Positions 15,123-37,512 of a DNA stretch of 64,000 bases are shown piece by piece (within the stretch, counting starts at the first letter, position 1; every line of letters begins with the position of its first letter). The position numbers and the translations under genes were made by a program. The stretch comes from an uncultured virus (IMG/VR IMGVR_UViG_3300048799_000004) (Duplodnaviria > Heunggongvirae > Uroviricota > Caudoviricetes), in the IMG/VR virus record IMGVR_UViG_3300048799_000004; one strand, written 5' to 3'. The notes under the pieces are model-generated. The model was not told the DNA's origin and ran no database searches. It was given only the letters and a program-made list of their open reading frames with translations.

Positions 15123-18100
15123 TGGCTGACCTACTCGCGCCGGATCAGGGAGCAGCCGCGCAGCTCGACCAGGGAGGACTTCTCGCTCAGCCAGATACAG
15201 GTAGCGCTCTCCAGCCTGCGCCATCCCCTGAAGTAGCTGCACCAGTCGAGCCAGTAACCCTTAGTCAGCCTGCGAGCGCTGCATCTACACCTACCAAGAC
15301 CCCCGAGCCTGCAGATATTGACGCGCTGAAGGCTAGCCCAACAGAGTGGCCGAAGTTCGAGCAGTACTTTGGCACGCTACCAAAAGACTTCCAGAAGCCA
15401 ATAGCACAACCTGAAGACGTGGCGGCGCTGAAGGCCAGCAACGACGACCCCAAGGTCGTCAATGCATATGAGAAGACGTTCGGCTCTCTGCCGTTCGGCG
15501 CTGTCCCTGGTCGTGACATAGATGACGCCTCTCGTGTGTTCGCATCCAGCGCGATGCGCGTCACTGCAGCGATGGCTGCTGGTGGTCCGCCCACAGCTGA
15601 AGACATGCGCAAGGGTGGAGCCGGTCTCGTCCAACGAGCTGCTGACAGAGCCACGCAGTTCAAGAAGGACATGGAAGATCCTAATCAGAACTGGCAGGAC
15701 AACCTAAAGTCAGTTGGCAGCGCGTTCGTTGCTGCAGGAGAAGAGGCCGGTGGAATTGTCTCATCAGCGGTTGGAAGTAATCCGCTCATGCGCTTCACTG
15801 ATTTCGTGCGCGCCAACCTCAAGCAAACCCAGGACGATCAGGTGGCGCTGCAGAATAAACTGAAGACCTTGCCGCCAGATCAGGCGCAGGACTACATGAA
15901 CAAGCTCACTGGCGGGCAGCTCAGCCCGAACACGCTGAGGAACGTACCTCTATTGCAGGCCCAGAAAGGCTGGAGCCCTACCTCGGCAGTCGGAGACGCA
16001 GTCAAAAAGGGCGCTGATTCCCTGAATGCAGTGGCTGATGATTGGGAGAATGGAGTATCCCCGGCCGCGAAGAAAGCGCTTGAAGAGACGATGGTGAGCC
16101 CAAACAAGGGTGAGCTGCTCGGTCCTGGTGCCACAGACCCACGCGCTGCAATCCTACATGCCTCACAGATGTTTGGAACAATCGCGCCGTTGATGGTGCT
16201 TGGGGATGGCGCTGGAACTATCGGGTTCGGTCTTGGCAGGGCAGCAGCTGTCGAGTCTCTTGCTGATGTTGAGATGCCTATTATCGCCAAGGAAGCGGCC
16301 ATAGCAAAAATGGCTGGAGAAACATCCGTTAAGGCAGCGTATGGCGCAAACGCAATCGCAGCAGGGCACGGGTTCGGCGAGATGAGCGCGCAGCAGGTTG
16401 CCAAGCAAGTCGATCAGATGGACGAAAAGGATCTCATGAAGATACCTGAGTACAAGGCCGTCATTGACAACAAGGGAACTACAGAGCAAGCCAAGATCGC
16501 GGCCAGTCACAATGCCCAGGTAATCGCGTACATGTCTGGAGCCATCGCCTCTGGCCTCGACATCAAGTACGTGCAGGACGGCTTCGGCTCTGCAATGGAA
16601 AACATGGAGAAGGTTGTCACTGCTCGCGCAGGGGCTACCGCAGGCGCTGCTGGTGTGATGGCAGGCACAGTAGTAAAATCTGCGGCTGGCGGCGCTGTGA
16701 TGATGGGCGGAACCACAGCCGGTCAAAATATTGCCACAGGTCAGGATGTGACTAAAGGTGTCGGAGAGTCAGCCGCTCAAGGAGCTGCAATGGGTCTCAG
16801 CACTGCTGTTGCTGGACACGCTGTTGCCGGTGCTGCGGCCCTTGGCAAGAGCGGCGTGGATGCGATGCGCGGTAAGGCCACCGAGCAGAGCACTCCTTCT
16901 AGCGGCACTGATCCGTCTGCACAGAAACAGCTCACAGGCCCAGGCTCTGACACCACCACTCCAGCGCCATCACCAAAGTCATCACAGACTCACGCGGATC
17001 TTCAGTCTGTTGCACGCGGCGAAGAGCTACCGCCAGAAGCAATCAAGGCTCTCAAGGATCAGGGGCTCATCAGCACTGGCTCAACGAGCGGTAAGCCTAT
17101 GGTGTTGCCAGCCGGGAAGCGCTTCATCACGGACTTTCAGCAGACACTGAAACAGTCTGCGGCAGAATCAGCATCCGCCAAAGGCCAGCCTGGGACAGAC
17201 GAGAGCAAGAACGCTCCTGAGACAACGCCCAATAAAATGGACGCTAACGAGGTTAAGGTCCAAGATACTGGCCCTAAAGTCACGGAAGAGGCCGATACGG
17301 CTACTAAAGCGCCCCGTACACCTGACGAGACCAAGGACGAGGCCGGTGTCGCCGCAGACCAGCAGCTGACAAAGAAGCAGCAGATGGACAAGATGCAGGA
17401 GTCTCGCGATGCCGAGATTCAGTCGCATATGGGCTCCAAGCGTGAGGAGGACTATCCGCTGGCGCTCAATCAGAAGGGCGAGCAGGACTCTACCCAGGCT
17501 TCATATGAGCCGCAGAACCGCGCGATGACGACGATGCAGGACGCGATGGAGATGACGCAGAAATCACAGACGCAAGTACGTGAGACCATTCCGCGCGCTA
17601 CAAGCCTATCTAGCTCTGATCGCAATATCGAGTCGCGCTTCATTGATAGCATCTCCTCGAACCTGCCTGCCGCTATCAAGAAGTACTCGCAGCTGCCGCA
17701 GACTGACGGCGGCCGCATCATCAACACTGACGAGGTTCGGCAACTGAGTGCCGACTACGCCGGGGACCATTCAGTCACTGCCGCCGTGCATGAACCGTCA
17801 TCCTGGCTCGCTGGCGTGATGTATAAGCGAGCCCTTGCGCAGCCAGCTCCCCCTGGGAAAGACAACGTCGTTGTGATGACAGCCGGTGGCACTGGTTCAG
17901 GAAAAACATCTGGGCTAGACCTCGCGCACATGGACCCGATCACCCGGCGCGCACAAATCGTATTCGATACGGCGATGAACAGCTTCGAGACCGGCAAAGA
18001 TAAGATCGCCGCCGCGAGAAACGCTGGCAAGGGCGTAATCATTCATTACGTGTACCGAGACCCGCTCCAGTCATTCGCTGAGGGTTCTCTGCCGCGCTCG

Positions 18101-21100
18101 ATGGATATGGGGCGCGTCGTCCCTATTGAGGCAGTGAAGGGAACGCACGAGGGATCATCGAAGGCTATCAAAAAGTTGATGGTTCACTTCAAAGACGATC
18201 CGATGGTGCAGTTTGTAGCTACACACAATGAAGGAAACGGCAAGGCTGTCGCGATAGACCCTTCCGAGGCAGTCAAACTCAAATCAAAGGTGTCGCTGGA
18301 AATCCTGCGCTCCGCAGCAAAAGAGGCACTAAAAAATGGCACAATCACCCCAGAACTCTACGCTCGCACCACCGGGCAACTCGCCCCTGGCACCGCAGCA
18401 ACTGTTGGCAGTAAAGGCGCGGATGGCAGCATACGGTCAGCGGGCAGCGATGTTGGCGTCAGTGAAGGCGGCGCAGGAAGCGAAGGCGAAGGGTCAGAAA
18501 CCAGCCGAGCTAACCTAGACCGCATCGAGGCTCGCGCCAAGCGCAGGTTCGCGGAAGAGAAAGCTCGCCGCACGACAGCCAATAGACTGCAGCTCGTACC
18601 TCGCTCTGGCGCATCGCCAGCAGAGGAGCAGCTCACCAGTAACTGGACAGACCTGTCGAACTCGCTCGCGAAGCCAGGGACATCACTGACGAAGGCTATC
18701 GAGCAGAGCGGTATGGGCGCACACCAGCTGCTGGACGGAATGGTTGCAGCTTCTGAGGGGCTCGCGCCAGAAGTGAAGGGCGTGATGGAGTTGCTGCGAG
18801 AACACGTTCCTGACGTGCGCGTCAGTATCGTTCCGTCCATCATAGGTCGCGGCGGTGAGAAGCTAACAAACGCTGACGGCATGTACTCACCTGTAGACGG
18901 CCACGTCCAGGTCACGAAGCGCATCATCAATAAACCGGCTGGTCCCCGCGTGCTCGCGCATGAGTTGTTTCACGCAGCAATGGCTCGTGAGATAGAGGAG
19001 AACCCAGGCAGTCCGCATGTCGTTGCGCTGGCAGATCTCCTCGATGAAGCTCGGGATCTTGCTGGTACAAAGTACGGCCATGAAGTTGTTGCTGACCACG
19101 TAGAGTACTTCAACAGCACAGAAGGCACCGCGATCAAGCCAAAGAACTACAATCGCAACCTGTACGGCCTCACTGACATACTGGAGATGACAGCAGAGAC
19201 AACGACGAGCCCAGCCTTCCAGCGGCTCCTCGATCACCTGGACAACGAGGTCCGTAAAACCCTCAGCATGGATGATCCGTATCGCATGATGATGTCACAG
19301 GGAGACTACGAGGGTCTCGTGCAGCGCATCGTCAACGGAATCACTGACATCTTTGGCCCACGCAACTCGCGCGAAACACGTCTTCTGCAGGACATCATCT
19401 ACCACACAGCTGGCGTCATGAAGGACCAGAAGGCCCGTATGTCAACAGGACAAATGTTGAGTAAGGATGCGCTGTCTGTAAAAGATGACCTATCGAACCA
19501 GTCTGGCGATGAGACCAGTAAAACGATGGACCACACGCACACGCTCCTAAAGAGCGGGCGCACAGACATGATCAAGGGCCACGACCACGAATGGTTCCCT
19601 GAGACACAAAGAACCGGCAAGGGCGGAACCGGCGAGGATACTCACACGCACGGCCTCGGAGAGGATCGCAAGAACGCTGAAGGCAAGATGATTGCCGACG
19701 ACCTGGGTAAGAACAAGATCTCGAAGCTGGTCCTTGGTGCCGCTGAACTCGGCGCGCTCAAGCTCATTCGCGGCGTCGTCAAGTACGAAGAGTGGGCACC
19801 TGCGATGTCGAAGCAGTTTGGCCGCAGCATCAAGCCTGTACTCCCGCAGCTCTTTGAAATAGCAAAGGACAAAACTCGTGATATCAAATCCCTGGTTTAC
19901 AAGAAAGGTAAAGATGGTCGTTACGTGGGTGGGCCAGCCGGACTTGGTAGAGATGACCTTGCGACACTCAGGGCTACCGTTAGAAAGCTCGCGCGAGAAG
20001 GCGGGGACTTCAGGAACTGGTACGACGAATCGTCCCAGGCAGTGCTCGATGCTGTTGGCGGCGATATCGCAGAAGCGAAGAAGCTCGCGGGTCTGCTGTC
20101 TATCTTTAGTTCCGGGGCTACTGTAAGCGCCAACACCACGATGGCTCTGCGCGCGTGGTATCAGCATCAGAACGGCGTAGCTATTGACACTGGCACAACT
20201 GCGAACGACGAAGTTGCGCAGCGCTGGCTCGACCTCGGGAAAGAGCCTGACGGCATGAAGAAGTCCAACTTCTACGGCAATCTTCTGCAGAAGCTCCAGG
20301 GCGATCACTCAGACGTGTGGCACGGCGGTGTGACGGTTGACCGCTGGATGATGCGCGCTCTTGGCTATGCCAAGGAAGCTCCCACAGACCCTCAGTACGC
20401 ATTCATATCCGACCAGATCCGCAAGGTTGCGAAGGATCTCGGCTGGGAGCCTGAAGAGGCGCAGGCAGCAGTGTGGGTCGCTATTAAGGCGCGCTGGGAA
20501 GACATCCGCAAGGAAGGTCACGCAGAGGCGATGAAGAATGGTTGGATCTCGCTTGGCAAGGACTCGCAGGGGAACCCAGAGACGAACATCCTGGACCCTG
20601 AGCGCTACTACGGCATGATGCTGAAGCGCTCACTCGCATACGCCCTACCTAAGGAGAGTCTCGCGCGCGCCGGGGCGAACTACCGCACGGAGCTGGTCAA
20701 GCAACGTGGTCAGGTCTCCTGGGAAGCTCTCCCGAGTTCCGAAAGCGGCAAGCTACCAGGGATGGAGCACATGCCTATCGAAGTGCAGGCAGCGTTCCAG
20801 CACGACGCAGCTGCTGCGCTCATCAATCCCAAGACCGGAAACGACCATCTCCGTGAGTCACTTGGCATGCTCTCTGTCGGACACATAGACGGCAACTCGG
20901 CTTGGTTCAACAACCCTGGTCAGGTAATGCGCTTCCGTCACTGGTCAACTCAGTCGGACCTCTCGACAGTCGATCCGAAGTTCATGGGCAAGGGCGTCTC
21001 CACCTGGGCTGAGCGCGGCCGTACCAACAAGGTCACGGCGCTCTATCCGTATGAGACAAACGAAGAGCAACCCGAGAAGCTGGTTGCGTCAGGAGCACCG

Positions 21101-24100
21101 CATCAGTATGTCGCCGAGATCCCGGCGCAGCTGTTGTATGACGCGTCCCGAGATCCGCTTGGCTTCCGAGAAGCTGCGATGGAGCCAATAGGGTTCGACG
21201 GCAACGGACCAACAGACTTCTCCTACAACCACGATGAGTTCGAGAAAGGCGTCAAGGCTCACGGCTACCTAGGGTACTACGGCAGTGACGCAGGGGAAGA
21301 TAAGCTCATGCAGGGTCAGGCTCGGCTCTTCAAGCCGTGGCCTGTGACCCCGGTTGATAAATACGTCAACTTTGATGGCTACTCCAAAGCTGGCTCGCAG
21401 GAGATCATATACGCGCCAATGACGAAGGGTGCCGCGAAGCTCAAGGGCAGCGTGCCAATCGACCCGAATGCGCGAGCGATATTAGAGAGTTACGCGGCGT
21501 CCATCGCGATGCTCAATCACCAGAACTCAGTCGGCTGGCACCGCCCACGCACCGACTCCCTGGTGCGCGACGAGAACGGAATGGCAGTCCACTTGACAAA
21601 TGCGTCAAGCGATAGCTTCTTAAGAGCATACAAAGCCGTTTCAGATGCTGCCAAGAGCGCAGGCGTACCTGCGGAGCGAGCGATGGAGTTCGCGCCGATC
21701 CACTCGCCAGAGGGATTCAGGTTCGTGAACTGGGGCGCGATGGACAACAACGAATTCAAAAAGACGGTGAGTGCTGCAATCGCCAGCGTTCTACCAGACG
21801 CTGTGCTCACGCCGTTCGCGGCTGACGGCGGGCTCATCAGTAACGATTGGACCACACACAAGAACGGAGAACAGTATGCACAAGTCATCGCAAAAAACGG
21901 CCACAGCACCGATCTCGCAGAACCTATCGCTGCAGTCAAGCAGCGCCTTGAAGGCGTCTACTCCAAGTACGCCGAGCGCCTTGGCACCGAACATGGCAAA
22001 CGGGGAAGCGTTGAGGGGTCTGCCGATTCAGATGGGAAACTCGGACCACCAATATCCCTGGATCGGCTAACCGGCGACAAGGGAGGATTGCAAAAGGATG
22101 TGCGCGGCAGGTTCGGCAAGCTGGGAACTGATCTACAGCCAGCTGGGAAACTGTATGACCTGAAGAGTCTTGTTGAGAATCCCGCACAAATCGCGGACTT
22201 CGCGAAACGATTGGGGTTCGATATCGAGCTATTCAGCTTCACTTCTGACCCAAGTAAGGGTATCGAGTTCCGCCTACCGAAGCTCGGCAAGAACGGCTAC
22301 ACGGGCGGCAAGCTGTGGCTCTACGATCCTCGTGTCGGCGCTGCCTCGTTCCATGACGCGGACTACACCCGCGCGTGGCGCATCTCGCACGAACTGGGGC
22401 ACGCACTGACAGAGCACTTCATGCAGGCGAAGTACGGAGACAGCTTCCGCTACGGTCTGCTCGGGCAGACCATGCAGGTCGAGCGCGGTGGCGCTGGCAA
22501 GCAGAAGATGGTCAACCAACGTCCGCTCACGCTCTTAGAAGCTCAGCGCGCCGTGGAGTGGGAGGACGTCGCGTTCCGCATGCAGCGAGCGGTCCTGGAG
22601 AAGAACGGCGTGTCGATCCCAGACCAGGACTTCGCGCGTGAGTACAACACGAATATCTCGGACGCGGTGTACCGCGTTCTGACCGGTGACTTCACTGACA
22701 TGGACGGTCTGACGCCATCGGACAAACTACCGGACCTGCAGAGCGTACTGCAGCTCCTAGAAGACTCTGAAGGAACCCTCGCTAAGTCCCAGGGACGCGA
22801 ACCTTCAGTAGGATTTAACCTTCGTGCGTGGAGCCCCATCTCAGATGCGGACATTAAAGCGGCCCTGGAGAACCGTATGTCAGGCGGCGGGAAGGTCAAG
22901 TTCTCCGCGCGCGATGAGTCTGACTACGAGGTTGTCGCCAAAACAAAGGTCGGCGATGAAGTCGAAGGTCCGCACAACGAGTTGACGTTCAGCTCTAACG
23001 AAGACGCGCACGACTACGTTGACTCGCATGACCTACCTCCAGGAGCTAACCACTTCCTGGTGCGGCCGGTAAATCGCAATCCGTTCCAGCGCACTCCGAG
23101 GGCGAAGGACGGCAAAGCGCCGTCGTCTGCAATGAAGGCAGAGTTCGTCTCCAAGTACCCGCTGGTTGGAAAATCCGTCCCAGGGTACGGTCAGCTCGAA
23201 GAGCGTCTGGTCAACGGCAACGTGATTGTCGGCATGGTGACTGACCCATACGATGCTGGCACAGTGTACCTAAGCATTGTTCGATCATTGGAGCCGGGTC
23301 AAGGAGCTGGCACAAAGGCCCTAGCTGACATCGCCGGGTTGGCTGACAAGCACGGCGTAGCGATGGAACTGAACGCATCTCCGCTGGACACTGACGGCAT
23401 CCGCATCGAGCCGCTTATACGCTGGTACGAGAAGATGGGGTTCAAGCAAGGAACTACCGAGAGCATGAGCGAAGGCAGCCCTGATTGGAACGCCGGTCTA
23501 ATGCGCCGCGAGCCGCAAGACCCGGCGAAGTTCTCGGTCACTCCGTTTGAAACGAACGAAGGGAAAGGCTTGAGCGATGAAGATGCAGCCAAGGTATTGG
23601 CGCACGCTCAGGCTATGTTCCCTACCGCACATCATCATCTTGCGAAGTCCATCGAGGACGCTCCGCACGCCGTTCAGGCTGAAGCAGAGCTTCGCGGCAT
23701 CTCAGATAAGATCATGGCAGCCTACGTGCGCGACTACGACGGTACGCACATATATCTGATCCAGAATAACATGACGAGTCCAGAGGAAGCGCTAGACACA
23801 CTTGTGCAGGAGAACGTCGGACACGACGGTATCGCTCGCACGTTCGGCGATGAGATGGGCAACATCATGGATGGCTTCTTGCGCAACGGCTCATTAATGC
23901 CGTCAATTTTGCGCATGGCTGCGCGCGAGGGCATTGACCTGAAGGCAGCATCTGACCCGGTGTCGCGCATGGAAGCTCTGCGCGCCGCCACCGAGGAATG
24001 GCTTGCTCACGGTGCAGGTGCAGAACTTGCTGGCGCTGCAGCCCCCACTGGTTTGCGTGGTGCTGTCGGCACGGCGCTGTCTCACCTGAAGCTGTGGGCC

Positions 24101-27100
24101 GCAGGTAAGGGACTCCCCATTACCCTGGATCGAGATGACGCTCTAGTGGCGCTGCGCCGCGCGCATGACTACGTGAAGTCCGGCGCGTGGACTAATCGTA
24201 TCCAAGAGGCTCGTGATGCCAAGGAAGCCGCGAGCGTGAAGTTCGCCGTTGTTCCGCCAGACCCTGAGTCAATCAAGCGCCAGAACGCCAAGATGGGTGA
24301 GCAGCCAAAGGGGCCGAACACTGAAGGGTATAAGACTCGCGTGACTCGCGCTGTGGCTGATGCGCGCTCCAAGTGGCTGATAGAAAGCGCCGACCAGCTG
24401 TACCGCATAAAGCAGTACGAAGAGGAAGGACAGATACCACCGGCAGAGAGCGGGTACATATCAGCGCGTCTGTCCACGAACGTCATGCCTCAGATCCGCA
24501 CGCTCATGGAGTGGGGCGGAATCAAGTGGACTGGCACAGTTGGGTTCGACCCTGACAAATCAATGGCTCCTGACATCGACACAAGCGTGAAGCCGCTCAA
24601 TCAGATTCACGCGCCGCTCGGCAACGATCCGCAGATGCTGCGCAACTTCGAGTGGTATCAGTACGGGCTGCGCGCTAACGACCTGATGAAGGAAGGTCGC
24701 GAGAACTCTCTCACGAAGGAAGACATCGCTGACGCGCTCTCCTACGCGGTGAAGTATCCGCACTTCGTTCAGATGCAGAAGGACATCGCCAAGCTCAACA
24801 AGAACGTCCTTGACTTCGCTGAACGCGCCGGGATCATCAATCCTGAGACCCGTCCTCTGTGGGAGTCTGAGAACTACACACCGCTGTACCGAGTAGCAGA
24901 AGAGGCGCAGCACGGCCCGTTCGCCTCCGGTGCTCTGGGTAGCGTCAAGAACCCGATCACGCGTCTAAAGGGCGGCACGCAGAACGTGCGCGACATCACC
25001 GGCAATATGGTCCAGAACTGGAAGGTGCTCATCAGCGCTGCGACTAAGGCGCACGCGGCGCGCGTCGCAATAGACAACCTCACGCCACACGGTCTCGCGA
25101 TTCGTCAGCCTGACATGGTGGATGCCGTGATGTCTCCTGAAGGAATCAACGCAGCCCTTGAGAAGGCTGGCATCGAGCCTGTAGGTGCATCCTCGATGGC
25201 TGGCGTCAAGTTCCTGCTCAGTATGCATCAGGCCACAACCGGCGCGGACACGATCACTATCTGGCGCGGCGGCAAGCGTGAGAACTGGCAGATGGTAGAT
25301 CCTCTGCTCGCCCAGTCGTTTGCTGCGCTCAAGAACAGCCCGCTGGCGTCCCTCTCGAACGTAACTGGCCTCAAGACGGTTATGGGATTATTCGGCGGTG
25401 CGAAGCGCGGGCTCACCGCAGCTATCGTCCACACGCCGATCTTCTGGTTGCGCACCCTCTACAAGGATAATATCAACGCGTGGGTAGTCTCGCGCGGCAT
25501 CATGCCGGTGACCCCCATAGTCAGCGCCATCGCCGGGACCATCAAGGCAGTCATCGCTAACCCATCGTTCCGTAGGATGTCTGCGGCAGGTGCTTCGTTC
25601 AACCAGGGGCGCAACGATCCGTCAGACCTGAAGGTAGGCAGGAAGAAGTACCTGACTAAGCAGTCATGGGTTGGTCGGCAGTGGCAGAACTACCTTAACC
25701 TCACATCGAGTTCTGAGAACGCCAGCCGCGTGACAGTTTATGAGAACACACTTAAGAAGACCTCCAGTCACAAGCTTGCTGCCTTCGAGGCGCGCGACAT
25801 CATGGACTACGCCATGCGCGGAGCCTCGCCGCTCGTACACGCGATAGTTGAGACCGTGCCGTTCTGGGGAGCACACTCCCAGGGCATGTACAAGACTGGA
25901 CGCGCGATGGTTAGCAACTCAGGCTCATATGCTCCTACCCTAGGCAAGAAGATCGTAGGGCGCGTGGCCATGCACTCGCTAGACACAATGTACGCTGCGT
26001 CACTTATAAAGGGAGGCGCTCTTGCGTTCCTGGCTGCGGCTGCTGCGTTCCACAACTTCAACAACCCGGCGTACCAAGAGTTGCCTGACCTGCAGAAAGA
26101 GTCATCGTTCAACGTGTATGTCGGTAACCACAGGTTCATGGTGCCGAAGCAGTTCGAGAGCGGCCAGATCTTTGGTACGTTCCCTGAAGCCATTGTGACA
26201 GCAGCCCTCTCGAACAACAAGGCAACCGTTGCAAAAGAGCAGGCGCTTTATGCGTACCATGCGTTTGCGAACCTACTCAACCTGAACCCAACTCCGCAGT
26301 TGGTAAAGCCACTGGCAGAACTGTACGGTAACAGCGACTGGGCAAACAACGGTAATCCTATCCTGACGTCATTCGACCAGGAGCTTGCCCCAAGCGAGCA
26401 GGTTGGTCCGCGAACGAGCCCGACAATCACAGCTATCGCTCGGCACATGCCTATCGGTGGATGGCTGCAGAGCCCGAAGCAGCTGGACTTCTTGGTGCGA
26501 GCATATACAGGTATGTTGGGCACCTACGTATTGCAGGCTACCGACCTTGGGATGCGAGCTGCACACATGGCACCAAAGTCTCCTGATGACATCTGGCGTC
26601 AGCTCCCTGTAGTAAGTAGCTTCATGCCGGGAACTGGTGGCGAGCCGTACACGACGCGATCACTACAGGAACTCAACAAGGTAATGAAGGCTGCGGCTCC
26701 GATTGAGGCCAGCATCCGTGAGCTTGAGGGCGAACGCACAGAGGAATCCGTGGAGCGAGCCAAAGCTCTGATGGATGCAGATCCAGAGCAATATGTTGCG
26801 GTACACGATATGCGCAACACTGCTAAGTGGATTCATGAGCACCAGAAAATGCAGCGCAAGGCTATGCTGGACGCTGAGATGTCTGATGCTGAGAAGAAGG
26901 CTTATCTCAATGAATCCCAGAAAGGCATAAATCAAGCTGCTCACGACATCCACGAGTATCGCCCTGGCGGAACAGAGAACAAGACTCGGGTTGAAGATAT
27001 GCTGAAAAACGCAACATCAATGAACGACAAGGCGGCAATCCTGCGCGCCAACGACATGCCGCACACCGCGAGCCTGCTCGCTCAGCTCGGAAAGAAAATG

Positions 27101-27139
27101 CCACCTGCAGTACAGGCAGCATTGGAGGAACTCGCGTGA
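15122..27139 (+). CDS. Giant polyvalent internal virion protein (zeta-toxin-like kinase, HExxH metallopeptidases, HhH-glycosylase-like, ART-like, GNAT, LPD38-like domains)
   Basis: 4005 aa. Motifs: AGGTGSGKT, AHELFH, VTVDRW...QAAVW, RHWS...DP...LYD...DP, SHELGH, GQGAGT...WYEKMGF, QENVGH, ARDxMDY...VPF...PKxFE...SPxQxDFL. Confidence 0.8.
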   Translation: MADLLAPDQGAAAQLDQGGLLAQPDTGSALQPAPSPEVAAPVEPVTLSQPASAASTPTKTPEPADIDALKASPTEWPKFEQYFGTLPKDFQKPIAQPEDVAALKASNDDPKVVNAYEKTFGSLPFGAVPGRDIDDASRVFASSAMRVTAAMAAGGPPTAEDMRKGGAGLVQRAADRATQFKKDMEDPNQNWQDNLKSVGSAFVAAGEEAGGIVSSAVGSNPLMRFTDFVRANLKQTQDDQVALQNKLKTLPPDQAQDYMNKLTGGQLSPNTLRNVPLLQAQKGWSPTSAVGDAVKKGADSLNAVADDWENGVSPAAKKALEETMVSPNKGELLGPGATDPRAAILHASQMFGTIAPLMVLGDGAGTIGFGLGRAAAVESLADVEMPIIAKEAAIAKMAGETSVKAAYGANAIAAGHGFGEMSAQQVAKQVDQMDEKDLMKIPEYKAVIDNKGTTEQAKIAASHNAQVIAYMSGAIASGLDIKYVQDGFGSAMENMEKVVTARAGATAGAAGVMAGTVVKSAAGGAVMMGGTTAGQNIATGQDVTKGVGESAAQGAAMGLSTAVAGHAVAGAAALGKSGVDAMRGKATEQSTPSSGTDPSAQKQLTGPGSDTTTPAPSPKSSQTHADLQSVARGEELPPEAIKALKDQGLISTGSTSGKPMVLPAGKRFITDFQQTLKQSAAESASAKGQPGTDESKNAPETTPNKMDANEVKVQDTGPKVTEEADTATKAPRTPDETKDEAGVAADQQLTKKQQMDKMQESRDAEIQSHMGSKREEDYPLALNQKGEQDSTQASYEPQNRAMTTMQDAMEMTQKSQTQVRETIPRATSLSSSDRNIESRFIDSISSNLPAAIKKYSQLPQTDGGRIINTDEVRQLSADYAGDHSVTAAVHEPSSWLAGVMYKRALAQPAPPGKDNVVVMTAGGTGSGKTSGLDLAHMDPITRRAQIVFDTAMNSFETGKDKIAAARNAGKGVIIHYVYRDPLQSFAEGSLPRSMDMGRVVPIEAVKGTHEGSSKAIKKLMVHFKDDPMVQFVATHNEGNGKAVAIDPSEAVKLKSKVSLEILRSAAKEALKNGTITPELYARTTGQLAPGTAATVGSKGADGSIRSAGSDVGVSEGGAGSEGEGSETSRANLDRIEARAKRRFAEEKARRTTANRLQLVPRSGASPAEEQLTSNWTDLSNSLAKPGTSLTKAIEQSGMGAHQLLDGMVAASEGLAPEVKGVMELLREHVPDVRVSIVPSIIGRGGEKLTNADGMYSPVDGHVQVTKRIINKPAGPRVLAHELFHAAMAREIEENPGSPHVVALADLLDEARDLAGTKYGHEVVADHVEYFNSTEGTAIKPKNYNRNLYGLTDILEMTAETTTSPAFQRLLDHLDNEVRKTLSMDDPYRMMMSQGDYEGLVQRIVNGITDIFGPRNSRETRLLQDIIYHTAGVMKDQKARMSTGQMLSKDALSVKDDLSNQSGDETSKTMDHTHTLLKSGRTDMIKGHDHEWFPETQRTGKGGTGEDTHTHGLGEDRKNAEGKMIADDLGKNKISKLVLGAAELGALKLIRGVVKYEEWAPAMSKQFGRSIKPVLPQLFEIAKDKTRDIKSLVYKKGKDGRYVGGPAGLGRDDLATLRATVRKLAREGGDFRNWYDESSQAVLDAVGGDIAEAKKLAGLLSIFSSGATVSANTTMALRAWYQHQNGVAIDTGTTANDEVAQRWLDLGKEPDGMKKSNFYGNLLQKLQGDHSDVWHGGVTVDRWMMRALGYAKEAPTDPQYAFISDQIRKVAKDLGWEPEEAQAAVWVAIKARWEDIRKEGHAEAMKNGWISLGKDSQGNPETNILDPERYYGMMLKRSLAYALPKESLARAGANYRTELVKQRGQVSWEALPSSESGKLPGMEHMPIEVQAAFQHDAAAALINPKTGNDHLRESLGMLSVGHIDGNSAWFNNPGQVMRFRHWSTQSDLSTVDPKFMGKGVSTWAERGRTNKVTALYPYETNEEQPEKLVASGAPHQYVAEIPAQLLYDASRDPLGFREAAMEPIGFDGNGPTDFSYNHDEFEKGVKAHGYLGYYGSDAGEDKLMQGQARLFKPWPVTPVDKYVNFDGYSKAGSQEIIYAPMTKGAAKLKGSVPIDPNARAILESYAASIAMLNHQNSVGWHRPRTDSLVRDENGMAVHLTNASSDSFLRAYKAVSDAAKSAGVPAERAMEFAPIHSPEGFRFVNWGAMDNNEFKKTVSAAIASVLPDAVLTPFAADGGLISNDWTTHKNGEQYAQVIAKNGHSTDLAEPIAAVKQRLEGVYSKYAERLGTEHGKRGSVEGSADSDGKLGPPISLDRLTGDKGGLQKDVRGRFGKLGTDLQPAGKLYDLKSLVENPAQIADFAKRLGFDIELFSFTSDPSKGIEFRLPKLGKNGYTGGKLWLYDPRVGAASFHDADYTRAWRISHELGHALTEHFMQAKYGDSFRYGLLGQTMQVERGGAGKQKMVNQRPLTLLEAQRAVEWEDVAFRMQRAVLEKNGVSIPDQDFAREYNTNISDAVYRVLTGDFTDMDGLTPSDKLPDLQSVLQLLEDSEGTLAKSQGREPSVGFNLRAWSPISDADIKAALENRMSGGGKVKFSARDESDYEVVAKTKVGDEVEGPHNELTFSSNEDAHDYVDSHDLPPGANHFLVRPVNRNPFQRTPRAKDGKAPSSAMKAEFVSKYPLVGKSVPGYGQLEERLVNGNVIVGMVTDPYDAGTVYLSIVRSLEPGQGAGTKALADIAGLADKHGVAMELNASPLDTDGIRIEPLIRWYEKMGFKQGTTESMSEGSPDWNAGLMRREPQDPAKFSVTPFETNEGKGLSDEDAAKVLAHAQAMFPTAHHHLAKSIEDAPHAVQAEAELRGISDKIMAAYVRDYDGTHIYLIQNNMTSPEEALDTLVQENVGHDGIARTFGDEMGNIMDGFLRNGSLMPSILRMAAREGIDLKAASDPVSRMEALRAATEEWLAHGAGAELAGAAAPTGLRGAVGTALSHLKLWAAGKGLPITLDRDDALVALRRAHDYVKSGAWTNRIQEARDAKEAASVKFAVVPPDPESIKRQNAKMGEQPKGPNTEGYKTRVTRAVADARSKWLIESADQLYRIKQYEEEGQIPPAESGYISARLSTNVMPQIRTLMEWGGIKWTGTVGFDPDKSMAPDIDTSVKPLNQIHAPLGNDPQMLRNFEWYQYGLRANDLMKEGRENSLTKEDIADALSYAVKYPHFVQMQKDIAKLNKNVLDFAERAGIINPETRPLWESENYTPLYRVAEEAQHGPFASGALGSVKNPITRLKGGTQNVRDITGNMVQNWKVLISAATKAHAARVAIDNLTPHGLAIRQPDMVDAVMSPEGINAALEKAGIEPVGASSMAGVKFLLSMHQATTGADTITIWRGGKRENWQMVDPLLAQSFAALKNSPLASLSNVTGLKTVMGLFGGAKRGLTAAIVHTPIFWLRTLYKDNINAWVVSRGIMPVTPIVSAIAGTIKAVIANPSFRRMSAAGASFNQGRNDPSDLKVGRKKYLTKQSWVGRQWQNYLNLTSSSENASRVTVYENTLKKTSSHKLAAFEARDIMDYAMRGASPLVHAIVETVPFWGAHSQGMYKTGRAMVSNSGSYAPTLGKKIVGRVAMHSLDTMYAASLIKGGALAFLAAAAAFHNFNNPAYQELPDLQKESSFNVYVGNHRFMVPKQFESGQIFGTFPEAIVTAALSNNKATVAKEQALYAYHAFANLLNLNPTPQLVKPLAELYGNSDWANNGNPILTSFDQELAPSEQVGPRTSPTITAIARHMPIGGWLQSPKQLDFLVRAYTGMLGTYVLQATDLGMRAAHMAPKSPDDIWRQLPVVSSFMPGTGGEPYTTRSLQELNKVMKAAAPIEASIRELEGERTEESVERAKALMDADPEQYVAVHDMRNTAKWIHEHQKMQRKAMLDAEMSDAEKKAYLNESQKGINQAAHDIHEYRPGGTENKTRVEDMLKNATSMNDKAAILRANDMPHTASLLAQLGKKMPPAVQAALEELA

Positions 27140-30912: not shown

Positions 30913-31253
30913 GTGCGTGTCCTCAGCGCGAACAGCGCGCCCTTCTTGTTGAAGATTAAGTCTTTTCTAAGAGCACGGACTCTTGAATCGACGGATGAAA
31001 CGTATCCTGGTGCATCGTCATCCAAACCGTCAAACCTCACGATGAAGTCTTGTGCCCAGGTAGGGATCGGGCACCTTACGGTGATGTCTCCATTGCTCGT
31101 TCTGTAGTTCTGGTACTGCTGCCGTGAGTCAACGTATGACCGCGAGAACTTACCGAGCGGGCACCACCCAGAGCAGCATTGCGTGAACGTCAAGCTAAGC
31201 GGCTGGCGTTTCAACCAGCGCTCGAACTGAATCTTCGTCGTGATCTTTTTCAA
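30909..31253 (-). CDS. Hypothetical protein (probable TTG start)
   Basis: TTGA overlap with the exonuclease stop at 31250-31253. Confidence 0.5.
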   Translation of the reverse strand: MKKITTKIQFERWLKRQPLSLTFTQCCSGWCPLGKFSRSYVDSRQQYQNYRTSNGDITVRCPIPTWAQDFIVRFDGLDDDAPGYVSSVDSRVRALRKDLIFNKKGALFALRTRT

Positions 31254-31909
31254 CTGATAAACTCCAAACCCTTCTGGGCTGACTGTTGCGAGAGCTTCCA
31301 CAGCTCGTGTCGATACCATTGGTAGATAGACGCCTGCGCCATTGCATCATCAGCGGCCATGTGCTTCAAGAACTTCTTCTTATCCCCAATGGGATTCGGC
31401 GAGCCGTTCTTGGAAACCCCGGCGTAGTGTGCTGCTTCCTTGAAGGACCGTAGATCCATAGCATTCCAGAACTTCCATGTCTTCAGGTGCTCGATCTCGA
31501 AGTCCTCGAACGCTGAATCAATAATCGCTAGGTCAAAGTCCGTTCCCTGACATATGAGCTTGCCGTCACTTGATAGCTCTTCCTTCAGGAACTGAGCGTA
31601 AGACACCAGTAGTTCCTTCAGCCCAGGATAGACGTACACCGCCTCCTGCGAGTTCGGCGACTGCAGCACCCTGCGCGCCGCGTTCTCACCATCCCACCAC
31701 TGTATGGTTGCTGCGCTCACCACACGGTCTTTTTGAGACCGGTCGTCCCATGAAACCTGTCCGTAGAAAACCTGGACATTTGACTTGTCCAGGTTCTTGT
31801 AGAACCCGTTTTCATCGAACGCGCACACACCAATCGACAGGATGAACGCCCGCTTGGACGTTGCTTTTGTTTCTATGTCGACACTCAAGCTGCGCATACC
31901 GGTGCTCAT
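31250..31909 (-). CDS. DEDDh 3'-5' exonuclease (exonuclease VIII / RNase AS-like)
   Basis: VDIET, ILSIG, TIQWW, GxDFD, DLRS and HxAxDDA motifs. Confidence 0.85.
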   Translation of the reverse strand: MSTGMRSLSVDIETKATSKRAFILSIGVCAFDENGFYKNLDKSNVQVFYGQVSWDDRSQKDRVVSAATIQWWDGENAARRVLQSPNSQEAVYVYPGLKELLVSYAQFLKEELSSDGKLICQGTDFDLAIIDSAFEDFEIEHLKTWKFWNAMDLRSFKEAAHYAGVSKNGSPNPIGDKKKFLKHMAADDAMAQASIYQWYRHELWKLSQQSAQKGLEFIS

Positions 31910-33051
31910 GCCGCCCCCTCAAGCGCACCTATCCCTGCCTCGCATCGACGAGATGTCTGGCTCGGCTGGCGCACTTTCGGCGAAGACTCGTTCCCGCGCA
32001 CGGAGGTCAAGCACCTTGACCCGATCAGGATATTCCGAGCCGCATTCACGTCTCGGTCGTGCGACTCACCACAGTCGCGGCATACCCAGGATCTTACAAT
32101 CAACCCATTGACTCCTCGCGGACCACTGAGAGCTCCGCAAGCAGAACAGGTGACGCTGGTATAACTCTCATTGACGACCGATACGCTTCTGCCCGCCTTC
32201 TGGCCTTTATATTGCAGCTGCGTTTTGAGCATGCCCCAACCGCTATCCAAAACGCTTTTTGCCATTTTGGTTTTTGCCAGCTTAAGACTGCTCACGTCGC
32301 CTATGACTATGTTCTGATAACTATCAACCATTTTTCTTGAAAACTTATGCAACGCATCTTTGCGCTGGTTCGCCACGTGGCGATGAATACGTTTTGCTTG
32401 CTTCTTGTGCGCGCGACGCTGTGCGTTGGCGAGCTTGCCTGCGCTGCCGTGCGTCCACCGCCCTGCTTCGAGTTTGTCGCCGTCGCTAGTCGCCGCGATG
32501 GTCTTGCATCCTAGGTCTATACCTACTGCTTCCTGCGGCGCAACGGTCGGTTCAACAGGCACGTGAGCCGGCACGCACAAATACCAATCACCGACCGCGT
32601 CTTGAGCGAAGCAGCCATCCCGAAACTTGTGCTCGCCCAGGTACTCGCGATTAAATACGCGGAACATCTTGCCTGCAAACCGCAACGAGGAGCCGTTACG
32701 TTTCAGGCTTGCAGCCCTGAACGGTACCCAGCCCAGCGCGCGGCGCGGACCTTTACTAAAGCGCTTGTTTAAGACAATCTTTTTCGCCGCCTTGCGCTTC
32801 AATGCGTATTCCAAACACACCACGTTGATTGTATCCGCCCCAATATTCTCATAGTGATTAGTCCAGCCGCTCGTGCGGTTGCACAAGTCAAACCCCGTCG
32901 CGGGTTTTGATGCTTTGGCGCTGAACATGCGGACGTTGTTCCAAACGTCATGCGTTTCTACAGCGGCTTGGTTCAACCATGGGTACGCGTTCGGCTGCAC
33001 CTTCAGGCGAAGAGTGCGCGTGACCGAAAGCGGCATGAGCGGATCATTCAC
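31906..33051 (-). CDS. tnpB: TnpB-family RNA-guided endonuclease with rearranged RuvC-II; no TnpA in the window
   Basis: GIDLG (RuvC-I); IVIGDV plus VNESYTS; CSACG...CRDCG zinc finger; HDRDVNAARNI (RuvC-III). Confidence 0.92.
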   Translation of the reverse strand: MNDPLMPLSVTRTLRLKVQPNAYPWLNQAAVETHDVWNNVRMFSAKASKPATGFDLCNRTSGWTNHYENIGADTINVVCLEYALKRKAAKKIVLNKRFSKGPRRALGWVPFRAASLKRNGSSLRFAGKMFRVFNREYLGEHKFRDGCFAQDAVGDWYLCVPAHVPVEPTVAPQEAVGIDLGCKTIAATSDGDKLEAGRWTHGSAGKLANAQRRAHKKQAKRIHRHVANQRKDALHKFSRKMVDSYQNIVIGDVSSLKLAKTKMAKSVLDSGWGMLKTQLQYKGQKAGRSVSVVNESYTSVTCSACGALSGPRGVNGLIVRSWVCRDCGESHDRDVNAARNILIGSRCLTSVRGNESSPKVRQPSQTSRRCEAGIGALEGAA

Positions 33052-33172
33052 TTTTCCGTAGCTCCTCTGCTACCGCAACCCGTCGCAACGGGGGCGCAAC
33101 GTCCTTGTTGCTTCGGTGAGCGAGATACCCAAGGGCCATGAACCCTGCACCGTTGGCGCGTTTCTTGGCCAT
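33044..33172 (-). CDS. 42-aa small ORF (MAKKRANGAG...) between ssb and tnpB
   Basis: TAATG overlap with the ssb stop; ends in the tnpB start region. Confidence 0.45.
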   Translation of the reverse strand: MAKKRANGAGFMALGYLAHRSNKDVAPPLRRVAVAEELRKSE

Positions 33173-33639
33173 TAGAAGGGCAAGTCGCCGCCCTTCCCGG
33201 CCTTGTTCACACCTGCCGCTGCCTTTATGGCTGCCACTGGCTGGTGCTGCTGCTGAACCTGATCAGGCTCCTGCTCACCGCTCTCGTCCTCGTCGCTCTT
33301 ACCGCCGTTGCTAGACAGCATCTGCAGCTGGAACACGTTGACCTTCGTGGTGTACTTCGTGATGCCGTCCTGGTCCTCGTACTTCTGTGTTTCGAGCTTG
33401 CCATCGACATACACCAACGAGCCCTTATTCAAGTACTTGGCAGCGATCTCGCCGACGCGGCCCCAACACACGATGTTGTGCCATTCGGTCTTTTCCTTCT
33501 TCTCGCCTGTCTCTTTGTCAGTCCACTTTTCGGACGTGGCAATGGAGAAGTTGGTTACCGTGTTGCCGTTCGGGATCGTCCTGGACTCGGGATCTTTCCC
33601 GAGATGCCCGACCAATATCACTTTGTTTACTGATGCCAT
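33172..33639 (-). CDS. ssb: Single-stranded DNA-binding protein
   Basis: VNKVILVGxLGKDPE, FSIATSExWxDK, TEWHNIV and C-terminal DLPF. Confidence 0.97.
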   Translation of the reverse strand: MASVNKVILVGHLGKDPESRTIPNGNTVTNFSIATSEKWTDKETGEKKEKTEWHNIVCWGRVGEIAAKYLNKGSLVYVDGKLETQKYEDQDGITKYTTKVNVFQLQMLSSNGGKSDEDESGEQEPDQVQQQHQPVAAIKAAAGVNKAGKGGDLPF

Positions 33640-34430
33640 TAGTAGTTCCTCACTGCTTCTGTTTCGATATATTTGACACCCGCGTAGATGTCGTCCTTGT
33701 CAAGGGCGTTGTCGCCCTTTGCCCACTTGACCAGCCGCGTTAGGCCGGATTTTCGGAAGTCGATGATTTCATTCACCAGCTCTGGGGTTGCAGTCGAAAG
33801 CATAATGAACAGCGCGCTCGTGTCAACCACAAGACCGTACACGACTTTCTGTGTGTTGGTCTTCACGCCGTATGCCTCTGCCATCGCAGGGGCCTCTTTG
33901 ACCTGCGCTGCTACCTCGATGCCTGCCTGAAGGATCTCTTCAGCTGCCTTGGGTGCGGCTGCAGCCAAAGCAAGAGCCTCGGTCTCGATACGCTGCCTTT
34001 CTGCCAGCGCGGCTGCTTCAGCTGCAGCCTTTCGAATCTTATTGTAAGCCAGGATCTTGCCATCTAGAGCACCCTTTGCTTCTCCCAATCGGCCGGTGTA
34101 GACCTTCCAGAGGGTGTTCAGCTGGGATGTCAGATCGCGCAGTGGCTTGCCGACACGTAGGCGATTCGCCTCTGCTGTGGTCTCTACGGCGCTGATCTCT
34201 GCCCGTAATGCCCCGGCGATAGAGAACGACTTCTCGTCACTAATGACGACTCGCGACATTTGGTCCTCGATCTCGATGGTGTCGATTTCGAGGTTCTTCA
34301 TCAGCTCCCCGAGGGGGCCGATGGTCAGTGTGCGATTTACCTTACCGATCTCCAGCGACACGATTGCTAGCTGGCGGCTCGAAGCGTTCGTGGCGTTCGG
34401 GTCGATGGCTTCGATGATGTTGACGGTCAT
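33639..34430 (-). CDS. Coiled-coil protein of the recombination module
   Basis: R....KPL......N motif and an Ala/Glu-rich helix; GGAG RBS. Confidence 0.6.
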   Translation of the reverse strand: MTVNIIEAIDPNATNASSRQLAIVSLEIGKVNRTLTIGPLGELMKNLEIDTIEIEDQMSRVVISDEKSFSIAGALRAEISAVETTAEANRLRVGKPLRDLTSQLNTLWKVYTGRLGEAKGALDGKILAYNKIRKAAAEAAALAERQRIETEALALAAAAPKAAEEILQAGIEVAAQVKEAPAMAEAYGVKTNTQKVVYGLVVDTSALFIMLSTATPELVNEIIDFRKSGLTRLVKWAKGDNALDKDDIYAGVKYIETEAVRNY

Positions 34431-34439
34431 ACGATACTC

Positions 34440-34535
34440 CTAGTGAAACAATTGAGCGTGGCACGATTCAACTTGCCTCTGATGATCTCCGCACCCGCTC
34501 AGCAGTAGGACAGCGAGAATAAAGAGGTACTTCAT
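34440..34535 (-). CDS. 31-aa lipoprotein (MKYLFILAVLLLSGC...)
   Basis: Hand translation; lipobox LSGC; ATGA coupling. Confidence 0.55.
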   Translation of the reverse strand: MKYLFILAVLLLSGCGDHQRQVESCHAQLFH

Positions 34536-35451: not shown

Positions 35452-35645
35452 AAATGACAGGGAAAACTTGCGCGATTCAGGCTGTCATCGTTAAGGTTGG
35501 TCGATCCGTCCTCGAACCCTGCGATGTAACCACTCTCCCAGCCAGTCATGCGGCCGAAGTCGGTTCCTTTCTCGTAGCCGCGCCCATACCCGTCCTGGGC
35601 ACACAGGAAGCCTACAGCGAACAGGACGATGATATACCAGATCAC
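35448..35645 (-). CDS. Small membrane protein with GYxxG repeats
   Basis: Hydrophobic N-terminus; coupled overlaps. Confidence 0.5.
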   Translation of the reverse strand: MIWYIIVLFAVGFLCAQDGYGRGYEKGTDFGRMTGWESGYIAGFEDGSTNLNDDSLNRASFPCHL

Positions 35646-36082
35646 GCAGAGACCAAAGCCAGTGACTTGATCGCTACAGCGTAGAGATCCTTCACGCGCG
35701 CGTACACTGCGTCAGCTGGCTCTTTGCCGCTGTCCTTCTCGTCAACCTTCGTCACCGGGCGCGAGTCATTGAACGACGACAGCTCAGCAGGACTGATGTC
35801 ACCGGCAGCCGCTAGCAAAAGTTTCAACAGAAAATACTGCTGGTAGTCGTGACTGACGTTCTCTGCCGCTCCCAGCATGCAGAACTTTACAGCCTGACGG
35901 GTCCGCGCGGTTTTCAATTCGCGGCCCTGGGAGTCCAGCGCGTATGCTCCCTGAATCCAGGCATCGCGCGTGAGCAGGCTATCGGCCTGACGCAACATTG
36001 TCAGGTACACGAATGGGTTTTTCACCCACTTTCCACCCTTCTTCTTGCCAAGGATGGCCTCAATTTCGCTTGTACTAATCAC
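35642..36082 (-). CDS. Hypothetical protein (WxQG...CxxGA...FND family)
   Basis: Motif common in phage early genes. Confidence 0.55.
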   Translation of the reverse strand: MISTSEIEAILGKKKGGKWVKNPFVYLTMLRQADSLLTRDAWIQGAYALDSQGRELKTARTRQAVKFCMLGAAENVSHDYQQYFLLKLLLAAAGDISPAELSSFNDSRPVTKVDEKDSGKEPADAVYARVKDLYAVAIKSLALVSA

Positions 36083-37173: not shown

Positions 37174-37512
37174 TCAAGCTGCTCTGATGTCAGGCGTATC
37201 ATTCTGGCGGAACTCACCAAGCGATTCATCCCAGGGCGCGATGTCGGTCCTGGTCCACAACCTGTCGAATCTGGACTCAGTCCAGACAGGCTTGTAGATG
37301 TCGTAGGGTTCCGTGCTTGGCTTGCGGAACCTGGGTAGAGGAACTGGCATCTGTTCGCCAGCAAGGAACCTGTGTCTGGCCTCTTTAAGCGCCGGTAACT
37401 TGTAGGTCATTCCAGCGTGCATGAGGGCAACAGCCAGTGACTGACAGTCGTCGCAGTATGGACGACCAGGGTGATTGGCTGGTGACTTACAGACGATGCA
37501 TTGCTTAGCCAT
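37174..37512 (-). CDS. First gene of the left arm; CxxC...CxxC zinc-finger protein
   Basis: CIVC...YCDDC; ATG 6 nt after the -10 element. Confidence 0.55.
   Translation of the reverse strand: MAKQCIVCKSPANHPGRPYCDDCQSLAVALMHAGMTYKLPALKEARHRFLAGEQMPVPLPRFRKPSTEPYDIYKPVWTESRFDRLWTRTDIAPWDESLGEFRQNDTPDIRAA

Follow-up and report, generated by a model that had tools for sequence, protein, structure and literature searches.

How does a tnpB gene come to sit within the recombination operon of a phage? The stretch of DNA analyzed here, 64,000 nucleotides (nt) from an uncultured member of the Caudoviricetes (IMG/VR record IMGVR_UViG_3300048799_000004; hereafter the window), carries such a gene between ssb and the gene for a DEDDh exonuclease (exo). 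On its upstream side tnpB overlaps an open reading frame (ORF) of 42 amino acids (aa), and on its downstream side it shares an ATGA with the exonuclease ORF. An initial annotation of this locus took the tight packing to leave no intergenic space for the ends of an insertion sequence (IS), and proposed a domesticated nuclease built into the operon. Alternatively, tnpB could have arrived as part of a mobile element. We conclude that tnpB very probably belongs to a non-autonomous, active IS of the IS200/IS605 family that recently entered a lytic phage between ssb and exo, and that a free-standing HNH endonuclease gene lost 333 nt when this IS arrived.

The locus can be compared directly with its counterpart in a near-identical phage. 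The metagenome contig L080 matches window positions 36280-33115 at 100% identity and 31898-27753 at 99.98%, and between these two blocks the window has 1,216 nt, running from GAAG to CACCGG, where L080 has 333 nt. Those 333 nt complete a 134-aa ORF with a match to the Pfam domain HNH_3 (E 7.7e-8). Since this ORF is intact in L080, the 42-aa ORF of the window can be identified as a 19-codon stub of the HNH gene continued into the left end of the IS, and the stub is real coding sequence of that gene, since alignments to HNH homologues from phages begin at residue 6 or 15. On the downstream side, the L080 exonuclease ORF begins MRSLSV at the ATG homologous to window 31897; the additional MSTG of the window's exonuclease ORF, along with the ATGA overlap, is sequence of the IS right end. 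Both overlaps described in the initial annotation are therefore present in the sequence, but the element has sharp ends, at 33114 and 31899, that lie inside the two overlapping ORFs. Given that the ATGA and the overlap with the 42-aa ORF come from the IS ends, what seemed to be signs of no room for such ends are the ends themselves.

The ssb-exo junction comes in three alleles: an empty one, one with the HNH gene, and one with the HNH stub joined to the IS. The phage stretch occurs in peat and permafrost metagenomes, and our evidence comes from the contigs of four runs (X3, X5, X8, and X15) out of 24 listed. The HNH allele is present in three of these four. A joint between 31898 and 33115 with 333 letters between them was assembled in X5 (depth 13.8) and X8 (depth 28.9, on a 44-kb contig), while in X3 positions 31898 and 33115 each run into a loose end, and these ends read as the reverse complement of the ends of the 333 nt in L080. 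In X15, an RNA library that possibly contains DNA as well, a 151-nt contig joins 31898 to 33152 with one letter between and carries neither HNH gene nor IS; this empty allele has 22 nt separating the ssb stop from the exo ATG. The HNH insert (L080 3130-3499) is about 369 nt long, a multiple of three, its start overlaps the ssb stop, and both its start and its stop lie in the flanks. The window's own IS junctions were seen in none of the four runs. Two simple routes to the window allele were rejected: insertion into the empty allele would have left TTATGCGC as the right flank, not TATGCGC, and deletion of the 333 nt by slippage between GCTC repeats is at odds with the junction sequence.

The same IS was also found elsewhere. 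An X15 contig carries 236 nt of the IS right end, with one single-base gap, followed by 30 nt identical to window 34412-34441; this places a copy directly after TTTCACT, 11 nt upstream of the ATG of a 263-aa gene. A loose end at the IS left end in X3 marks a third insertion; the right end of the IS was found in the same run on a phage contig of 3.8 kb, at a distance of 3,244 letters past 33600. The sequences that flank the two IS ends in X5 are absent from the window. Because exactly matching IS ends occur at three or more further sites, we consider the IS to be currently active. Copies with IS ends at unrelated loci, which the initial annotation had held would point to an ordinary non-autonomous IS, do exist, with ends that join window 34441 in X15 and 37424 in X3. 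The highest contig depth in X15 is that of the 3' part of the IS; we made no use of this value, as contig depth cannot show expression.

We examined the element's boundaries by aligning the DNA around relatives of 59-71% identity on viral contigs and of 57-68% identity on genome contigs. Past the tnpB stop codon, conservation in all 23 copies extends to the CACCGG of GGCGGCATGAGCACCGG and then ends abruptly, and the first base beyond it is T, G, C, or A. This terminus occurs once in the window. The left end carries a hairpin, GCAAC-AAGGAC-GTTGC at 33096-33111 in the window copy, whose five-pair stem is complete in 10 of the 16 evaluable copies. Five different stem sequences occur, and the other four (GAAAC/GTTTC, GCGAC/GTCGC, GCGAT/ATCGC, and GGCAC/GTGCC) display compensatory changes. 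The window flanks, CTCACC on the left and TATGCG on the right, share no common repeat, and there are neither inverted repeats nor a target duplication. Across the 4 nt before the left end, 14 of 16 copies have C at -4, 14 have A at -2, and 15 have T or C at -1, giving a C-N-A-Y motif; before the matching left ends assembled in X3 and X5 stand CCCT and CGAC. Two viral contigs (L097 and L103, ~1270-1800) hold an internally deleted derivative in which both ends are kept, running from the left end through a part of tnpB encoding residues 221-357 to the right end.

The last ~123 nt of the element also appear to form a conserved structure. Over 21 copies, 36 pairs were evaluated, and 89.7% of cells were paired, compared with 35-39% when partners were slid; compensatory changes occur in 24 of the 36 pairs, and none of 500 shuffles attained the observed values. 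The IS boundary falls exactly where the last helix ends. Judging from these alignments, the 3' end is located and shaped as the guide-RNA scaffold of a TnpB would be. The 20-nt flank directly beyond it, TATGCGCAGCTTGAGTGTCG, is unique in the window and is found intact after CTCT in the IS-less L080, and we predict that it would act as the guide.

The right end additionally carries an outward-facing start codon, which reads ATG in 22 of the 23 copies and GTG in the other. Many copies sit 0-12 nt from, or within, the start codon of a co-oriented gene (observed for L004, L013, L015, L016, L017, L020, L021, L022, L029, L036, and L051). For 10 of the 23 copies, reading outward from the IS ATG gives an ORF of at least 100 aa, with GatB and a CcmA-like ORF among them; in other copies a short read-out ORF stops at or near the ATG of the next gene. 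This outward ATG looks like an adaptation to life in operons, although survival bias and chance long ORFs in GC-rich DNA are possible explanations. At the chromosomal locus L020 (5157-5164), upstream of the CcmA-like ORF, the first eight flank bases, TATGCGCA, are identical to window 31891-31898, which could reflect chance or a target preference.

What kind of TnpB does this element encode? The protein scored above the Pfam cut-offs for PF07282 (Cas12f1-like_TNB; E 5.9e-24, 84.4 bits against a cut-off of 26.3) and PF01385 (OrfB_IS605; E 5.4e-15, 56.1 bits against 30.5), as well as for the NCBIfam model guided_TnpB NF040570 (188.3 bits against 100). More than 6,600 proteins matched it at E <=1e-20 among 8,000 candidates scored. 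Its best solved relative by sequence is ISDra2 TnpB (8bf8/8exa; E 7.6e-25), in whose alignment G251 stands opposite the Glu at chain residue 278, which we take to be the catalytic Glu. Another Glu, E295, follows 44 residues after G251, and the stretch E295-SYTSVT-C302 matches the alternative-Glu pattern ExxxxxxCxxC (PMC10711439). The residues D179, G251, E295, and D334 and the four zinc-finger Cys do not vary among the 26 relatives (64-73% identity), and neither does the DLG of RuvC-I. Relatives use the same start codon position, with ATG in place of the window's GTG. The N-terminal 160 residues gave no alignment to ISDra2 TnpB, and an AlphaFold2 model built on a 26-sequence alignment (mean predicted local distance difference test [pLDDT] 52.5, predicted template modeling score [pTM] 0.36) is too poor for active-site geometry. 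By its sequence, the protein is a TnpB, an RNA-guided nuclease with a rearranged RuvC-II site consisting of a Gly and an alternative Glu.

Here the initial annotation held up well: the ORF, the motifs of RuvC-I and of RuvC-III, the zinc finger, the Gly, and the shifted Glu are all present at the codons listed in Table 1, and it was right to read this tnpB-only element as encoding a solo TnpB whose RuvC-II site is rearranged. Large TnpB clades are described in which Gly takes the RuvC-II Glu position and a Glu some 45 residues further on compensates; they comprise those termed RIIr, some of them virus enriched (PMC10691335), and TnpB2 (PMC10530073). The catalytic competence that had been claimed for such a site is published for other proteins, namely TvTnpB and ApmFNuc (PMC10530073) and the RIIr clades (PMC10691335). 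TvTnpB is reported as associated with an IS605 TnpA, cutting NTGAC targets with no collateral activity (PMC10530073). Like TvTnpB and the RIIr proteins, the window TnpB has Gly at the canonical Glu position plus the alternative Glu.

The label "Fanzor-type," by contrast, fits only in part. The alternative Glu agrees with it, since in Fanzors and pro-Fanzor TnpBs, too, such a Glu precedes the zinc finger by six residues. The lineage is marked, however, by that Glu combined with a RuvC-I DPG and an association with IS607, a combination given for fewer than 1% of homologues (PMC10711439), and the window protein has DLG, no serine recombinase in its context, and a variable first right-flank base. 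As far as these residues and the gene context indicate, the window TnpB shares the rearranged site without the Fanzor-lineage signature. The mimivirus Fanzor2 (9b0l) also matched more weakly than ISDra2 TnpB (E 5.6e-12).

The same evidence bears on whether the element could be of the IS607 type or pro-Fanzor lineage, moved by a serine recombinase acting through GG core sites. The alternative Glu is common to Fanzors and the right end does finish in GG, but the left flank ends C-N-A-Y rather than GG, and the varying first right-flank base is the pattern ascribed to IS200/IS605 (PMC10711439). The 115 ORFs flanking 29 loci include one Y1_Tnp but no serine recombinase or resolvase, and the IS607_TnpB model (93 bits) scores below IS200_TnpB (136 bits), each being under its own cut-off. 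Together with the DLG, these observations leave an IS607 origin scarcely credible. The element instead resembles tnpB-only IS200/IS605 elements in its OrfB_IS605 and TNB domains, its asymmetric ends and subterminal hairpin, its scaffold running over the tnpB 3' end to the right end, its variable first flank base, its insertion after a short motif, and its many solo copies with few TnpA. It differs from ISDra2 in the RuvC-II Gly with a Glu 44 residues later, in the unaligned N terminus, and in the conserved outward ATG overlapping the tnpB stop. It differs too in the C-N-A-Y-like motif before its left end, as the transposon-adjacent motif (TAM) of ISDra2 is TTGAT.

Could tnpB nevertheless be a fixed phage gene, free of any mobile element and co-expressed with ERF, YqaJ, and SSB? 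Such domestication would suit the shared operon orientation, the tight packing between ssb and exo with its ATGA overlap, and the left end, which has no promoter-like site and is probably read with the operon. It would also suit the lack of a TnpA in the window: as the initial annotation had noted, there is neither a TnpA nor a serine recombinase, and we found no Y1_Tnp or resolvase in the 68 of 69 window ORFs of at least 75 aa that were scanned (ORF 35454-35684 on the plus strand lay outside the scan). Yet the IS ends are intact, the near-identical phage of L080 has no element, the same IS occupies other sites in other samples, and 22 of 23 copies of the IS bring the ATGA with them. Synteny, which the initial annotation had proposed as a check, gave no support, as the operon context is shared by none of 11 viral loci with relatives (39-71% identity) and by none of the 29 examined loci. 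Domesticated TnpB derivatives of the TldR type, described as immobile, syntenic, and nuclease-dead (10.1101/2023.11.30.569447), resemble the window IS in having a TnpB fold and an associated RNA, but the window IS keeps its catalytic residues, ends, and mobility. We therefore consider domestication very unlikely, and the description of the gene as "built in" falls with it. It is also possible that the IS is a dead passenger, with a TnpB and RNA that do not work, persisting because it is recent and neutral. A Y1 TnpA stands beside tnpB in only 1 of 29 loci (L047, in a 44%-identity clade), and the IS allele is a minority in X8, with a depth of about 3-4 against 28.9 for HNH, although contig depth is a poor measure. 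However, the reading frame is open, all 26 relatives retain the catalytic and zinc residues, the scaffold is maintained by compensatory changes, and exactly matching ends occur at the further sites described above, all of which makes a dead passenger improbable.

How, then, might an active IS with only tnpB reach and spread from this junction? We propose that the host provides a Y1 TnpA in trans, which moves the IS by single-strand "peel and paste," with insertion after a weak C-N-A/C-Y motif. Because the left end has no promoter-like site, the IS would be transcribed with the operon, and the right-end ATG overlapping the tnpB stop may couple translation of the downstream gene, which would explain why the IS is found inside operons. 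RNA from the IS 3' end, with TATGCGCAGCTTGAGTGTCG as guide, would load TnpB and cut phage genomes that are IS-less at the site. Phage recombination by ERF, YqaJ, and SSB would then copy the IS in, resulting in homing between co-infecting phages. The CTCT that precedes the guide match in the HNH allele falls within the range of the IS motif, and the IS-less allele is thus a plausible target. From this analysis, homing would be the likeliest activity of the window TnpB. The element resembles free-standing phage homing endonuclease genes of the T4 Seg/Mob type, represented here by the HNH_3 gene of the sister allele: each is a selfish nuclease gene inserted between two conserved phage genes, each is present in some close relatives and absent from others, and each is expected to spread in co-infections by cutting the allele without it. 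Unlike such genes, the element would have its target read by RNA rather than protein, and it also transposes.

Relatives of the element were also found at 67 genome loci, mostly in metagenome-assembled genomes (MAGs) of Steroidobacteraceae or unclassified Gammaproteobacteria. Five MAGs have 1-5 matches each, several of them at contig ends, and the genes on either side of the genome copies have housekeeping roles, for example exbD/tonB, gatA/gatB, and ccm. Steroidobacteraceae-type MAGs with multi-copy relatives are likely the hosts.

Several observations weigh against an active IS200/IS605 element as we describe it. The transposase it would require is scarce: besides its absence from the scanned window ORFs and from beside tnpB at 28 of the 29 loci, Y1_Tnp was found in only one of five related MAGs, as a split match in a 3.2-kb stretch with no related tnpB. 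The window allele lacks 333 nt of the HNH allele and so is not a simple insertion. A similar loss appears in X3, where the two junctions, 37424 and ~36844, are about 579 nt apart and the DNA between is apparently missing, assuming that contig and window are collinear. Adjacent phage DNA is thus missing in both of the two insertions with both junctions known (333 nt and about 579 nt), and standard peel-and-paste transposition does not predict deletion of adjacent DNA. The CACC before the window's left end departs from C-N-A-Y at -2, where 14 of 16 copies have A. While the minimum-energy fold of the window copy has the same helices as the scaffold, its energy is ordinary (z 0.08 against shuffles), and because that single-sequence energy is not unusual, it is covariation that supports the scaffold. 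Rfam has no family for the right-end RNA, and the sole match, Hrs13 (E 1.1), is at chance level and outside the element. Finally, the evidence from runs consists of assembled contigs, not raw reads.

As a tentative and rather unlikely extension, the TnpB IS and the HNH gene may compete for the ssb-exo junction, with the IS spreading by non-restorative homing and carrying traits adapted to operons. In this competition, omega-RNA-guided cutting at the exonuclease start would be followed by repair that copies the IS and erases the HNH gene; the right-end ATG would restart downstream translation, and the IS-adjacent deletions would be part of the same adaptation to operons. Deletions could arise if the transposase paired the right end with a downstream TAM-like site, and the deleted HNH segment does end in CTCT. 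Aborted gene conversion between alleles is another possible source of the deletion.

Table 1. Coordinates, in the window, of the IS, its parts, its further insertion sites, and adjacent genes
Feature	Position	Strand	Basis or remark
Whole IS, 1,216 nt, non-autonomous (tnpB only)	31899..33114	minus	difference from L080 (blastn, sequence); abrupt conservation ends
IS left end: GAAG, hairpin, second hairpin, tnpB ribosome-binding site GCAGAGGAGC	33052..33114	minus	alignments, stem test
tnpB coding sequence	31906..33051	minus	381 aa, GTG start; Pfam, NCBIfam, ISDra2 TnpB alignment
RuvC-I Asp179 (GIDLG, motif DLG)	32515..32517	minus	sequence, ISDra2 alignment, relatives
Gly251 (IVIGDV) at canonical RuvC-II Glu position	32299..32301	minus	ISDra2 alignment; invariant 26/26
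Alternative Glu295 (VNESYTS), six residues before first CxxC	32167..32169	minus	invariant 26/26
Zinc finger CSAC...CRDC, C302/C305 ... C324/C327	32071..32148	minus	invariant 26/26; Pfam Cas12f1-like_TNB covers residues 272-341
RuvC-III Asp334 (HDRD)	32050..32052	minus	sequence, ISDra2 alignment, relatives
Omega-RNA-like scaffold, overlapping last ~39 tnpB codons and ending at IS right end	31899..32021	minus	covariation
Right-end terminus GGCGGCATGAGCACCGG; tnpB stop TGA overlapped by outward ATG 31907-31909	31899..31915	minus	kept in 23 copies
Predicted guide-encoding flank TATGCGCAGCTTGAGTGTCG, first bases of exonuclease gene region	31879..31898	minus	directly 3' of right end
HNH gene remnant, first 19 codons; with IS left end, the 42-aa ORF	33115..33172	minus	intact ORF in L080
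Second insertion site of the same IS (X15)	34441..34442	minus	contig joins IS right end to 34412-34441
Left flank of third insertion of the same IS (X3)	37424..37453	minus	loose end at IS left end matches exactly
ssb, upstream neighbor	33172..33639	minus	Pfam SSB, E 3.2e-37
Gene for the DEDDh (Rv2179c-like) exonuclease; its own start is the ATG at 31897	31250..31897	minus	Pfam PF16473, E 2.2e-23

The genes around the element are listed here for context. The same-strand neighbors are ERF, DUF6197, YqaJ, a 263-aa unknown, SSB, the 42-aa ORF, TnpB, and the Rv2179c-like DEDDh exonuclease. The remainder of the window holds phage genes, including those for capsid, adaptor, primase-helicase, and a 4,005-aa polyvalent protein, the last encoded at 15122-27139 and having Zeta_toxin-like, DUF7178, and LPD38 (large polyvalent protein) domains. 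A promoter and terminator scan returned nothing above chance. Megablast of window 31000-34000 against GenBank phages gave no match, and no relatives of the exonuclease were found in viral contigs; the nearest viral record (G001) stops at window ~34628, short of the tnpB locus.

Some further features of related copies were noted in passing. Contig depth spikes at window 31992-32139, to 145 in X3 and 36-69 in X8 against about 17-29 in the flanks, which fits many related IS copies in the community sharing the RuvC-III and scaffold region. On the viral contig L002 (5098-5700), an HNH_3 endonuclease ORF lies immediately upstream of a related IS copy. In several copies (L020, L026, L041, L056, L023/L024, and L051), the region that aligns with the tnpB start is interrupted after a few codons by 60-230 additional nt, and in these the protein match begins only at residue 8-12. 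An intein (Hint plus LAGLIDADG homing endonuclease domains) is carried by the terminase large-subunit gene of L009 (1199-3625), which lies near a TnpB relative of 43% identity.

For annotators, this locus is a caution that an IS can bring with it tight ATGA coupling and small ORF overlaps, neither of which proves integration into an operon. For the biology of these elements, it shows clearly, in a natural phage population, a TnpB element with a rearranged site moving about and displacing a rival homing endonuclease. Since the alleles from both before and after the event are available, phage-to-phage homing by TnpB can be tested directly with defined sequences. Homing of TnpB transposons into co-infecting phages or plasmids is listed as theoretical in a 2026 review (PMC13565253). 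If homing between co-infecting phages does occur here, it would be a case of "non-restorative transposon homing," hitherto a matter of theory only.

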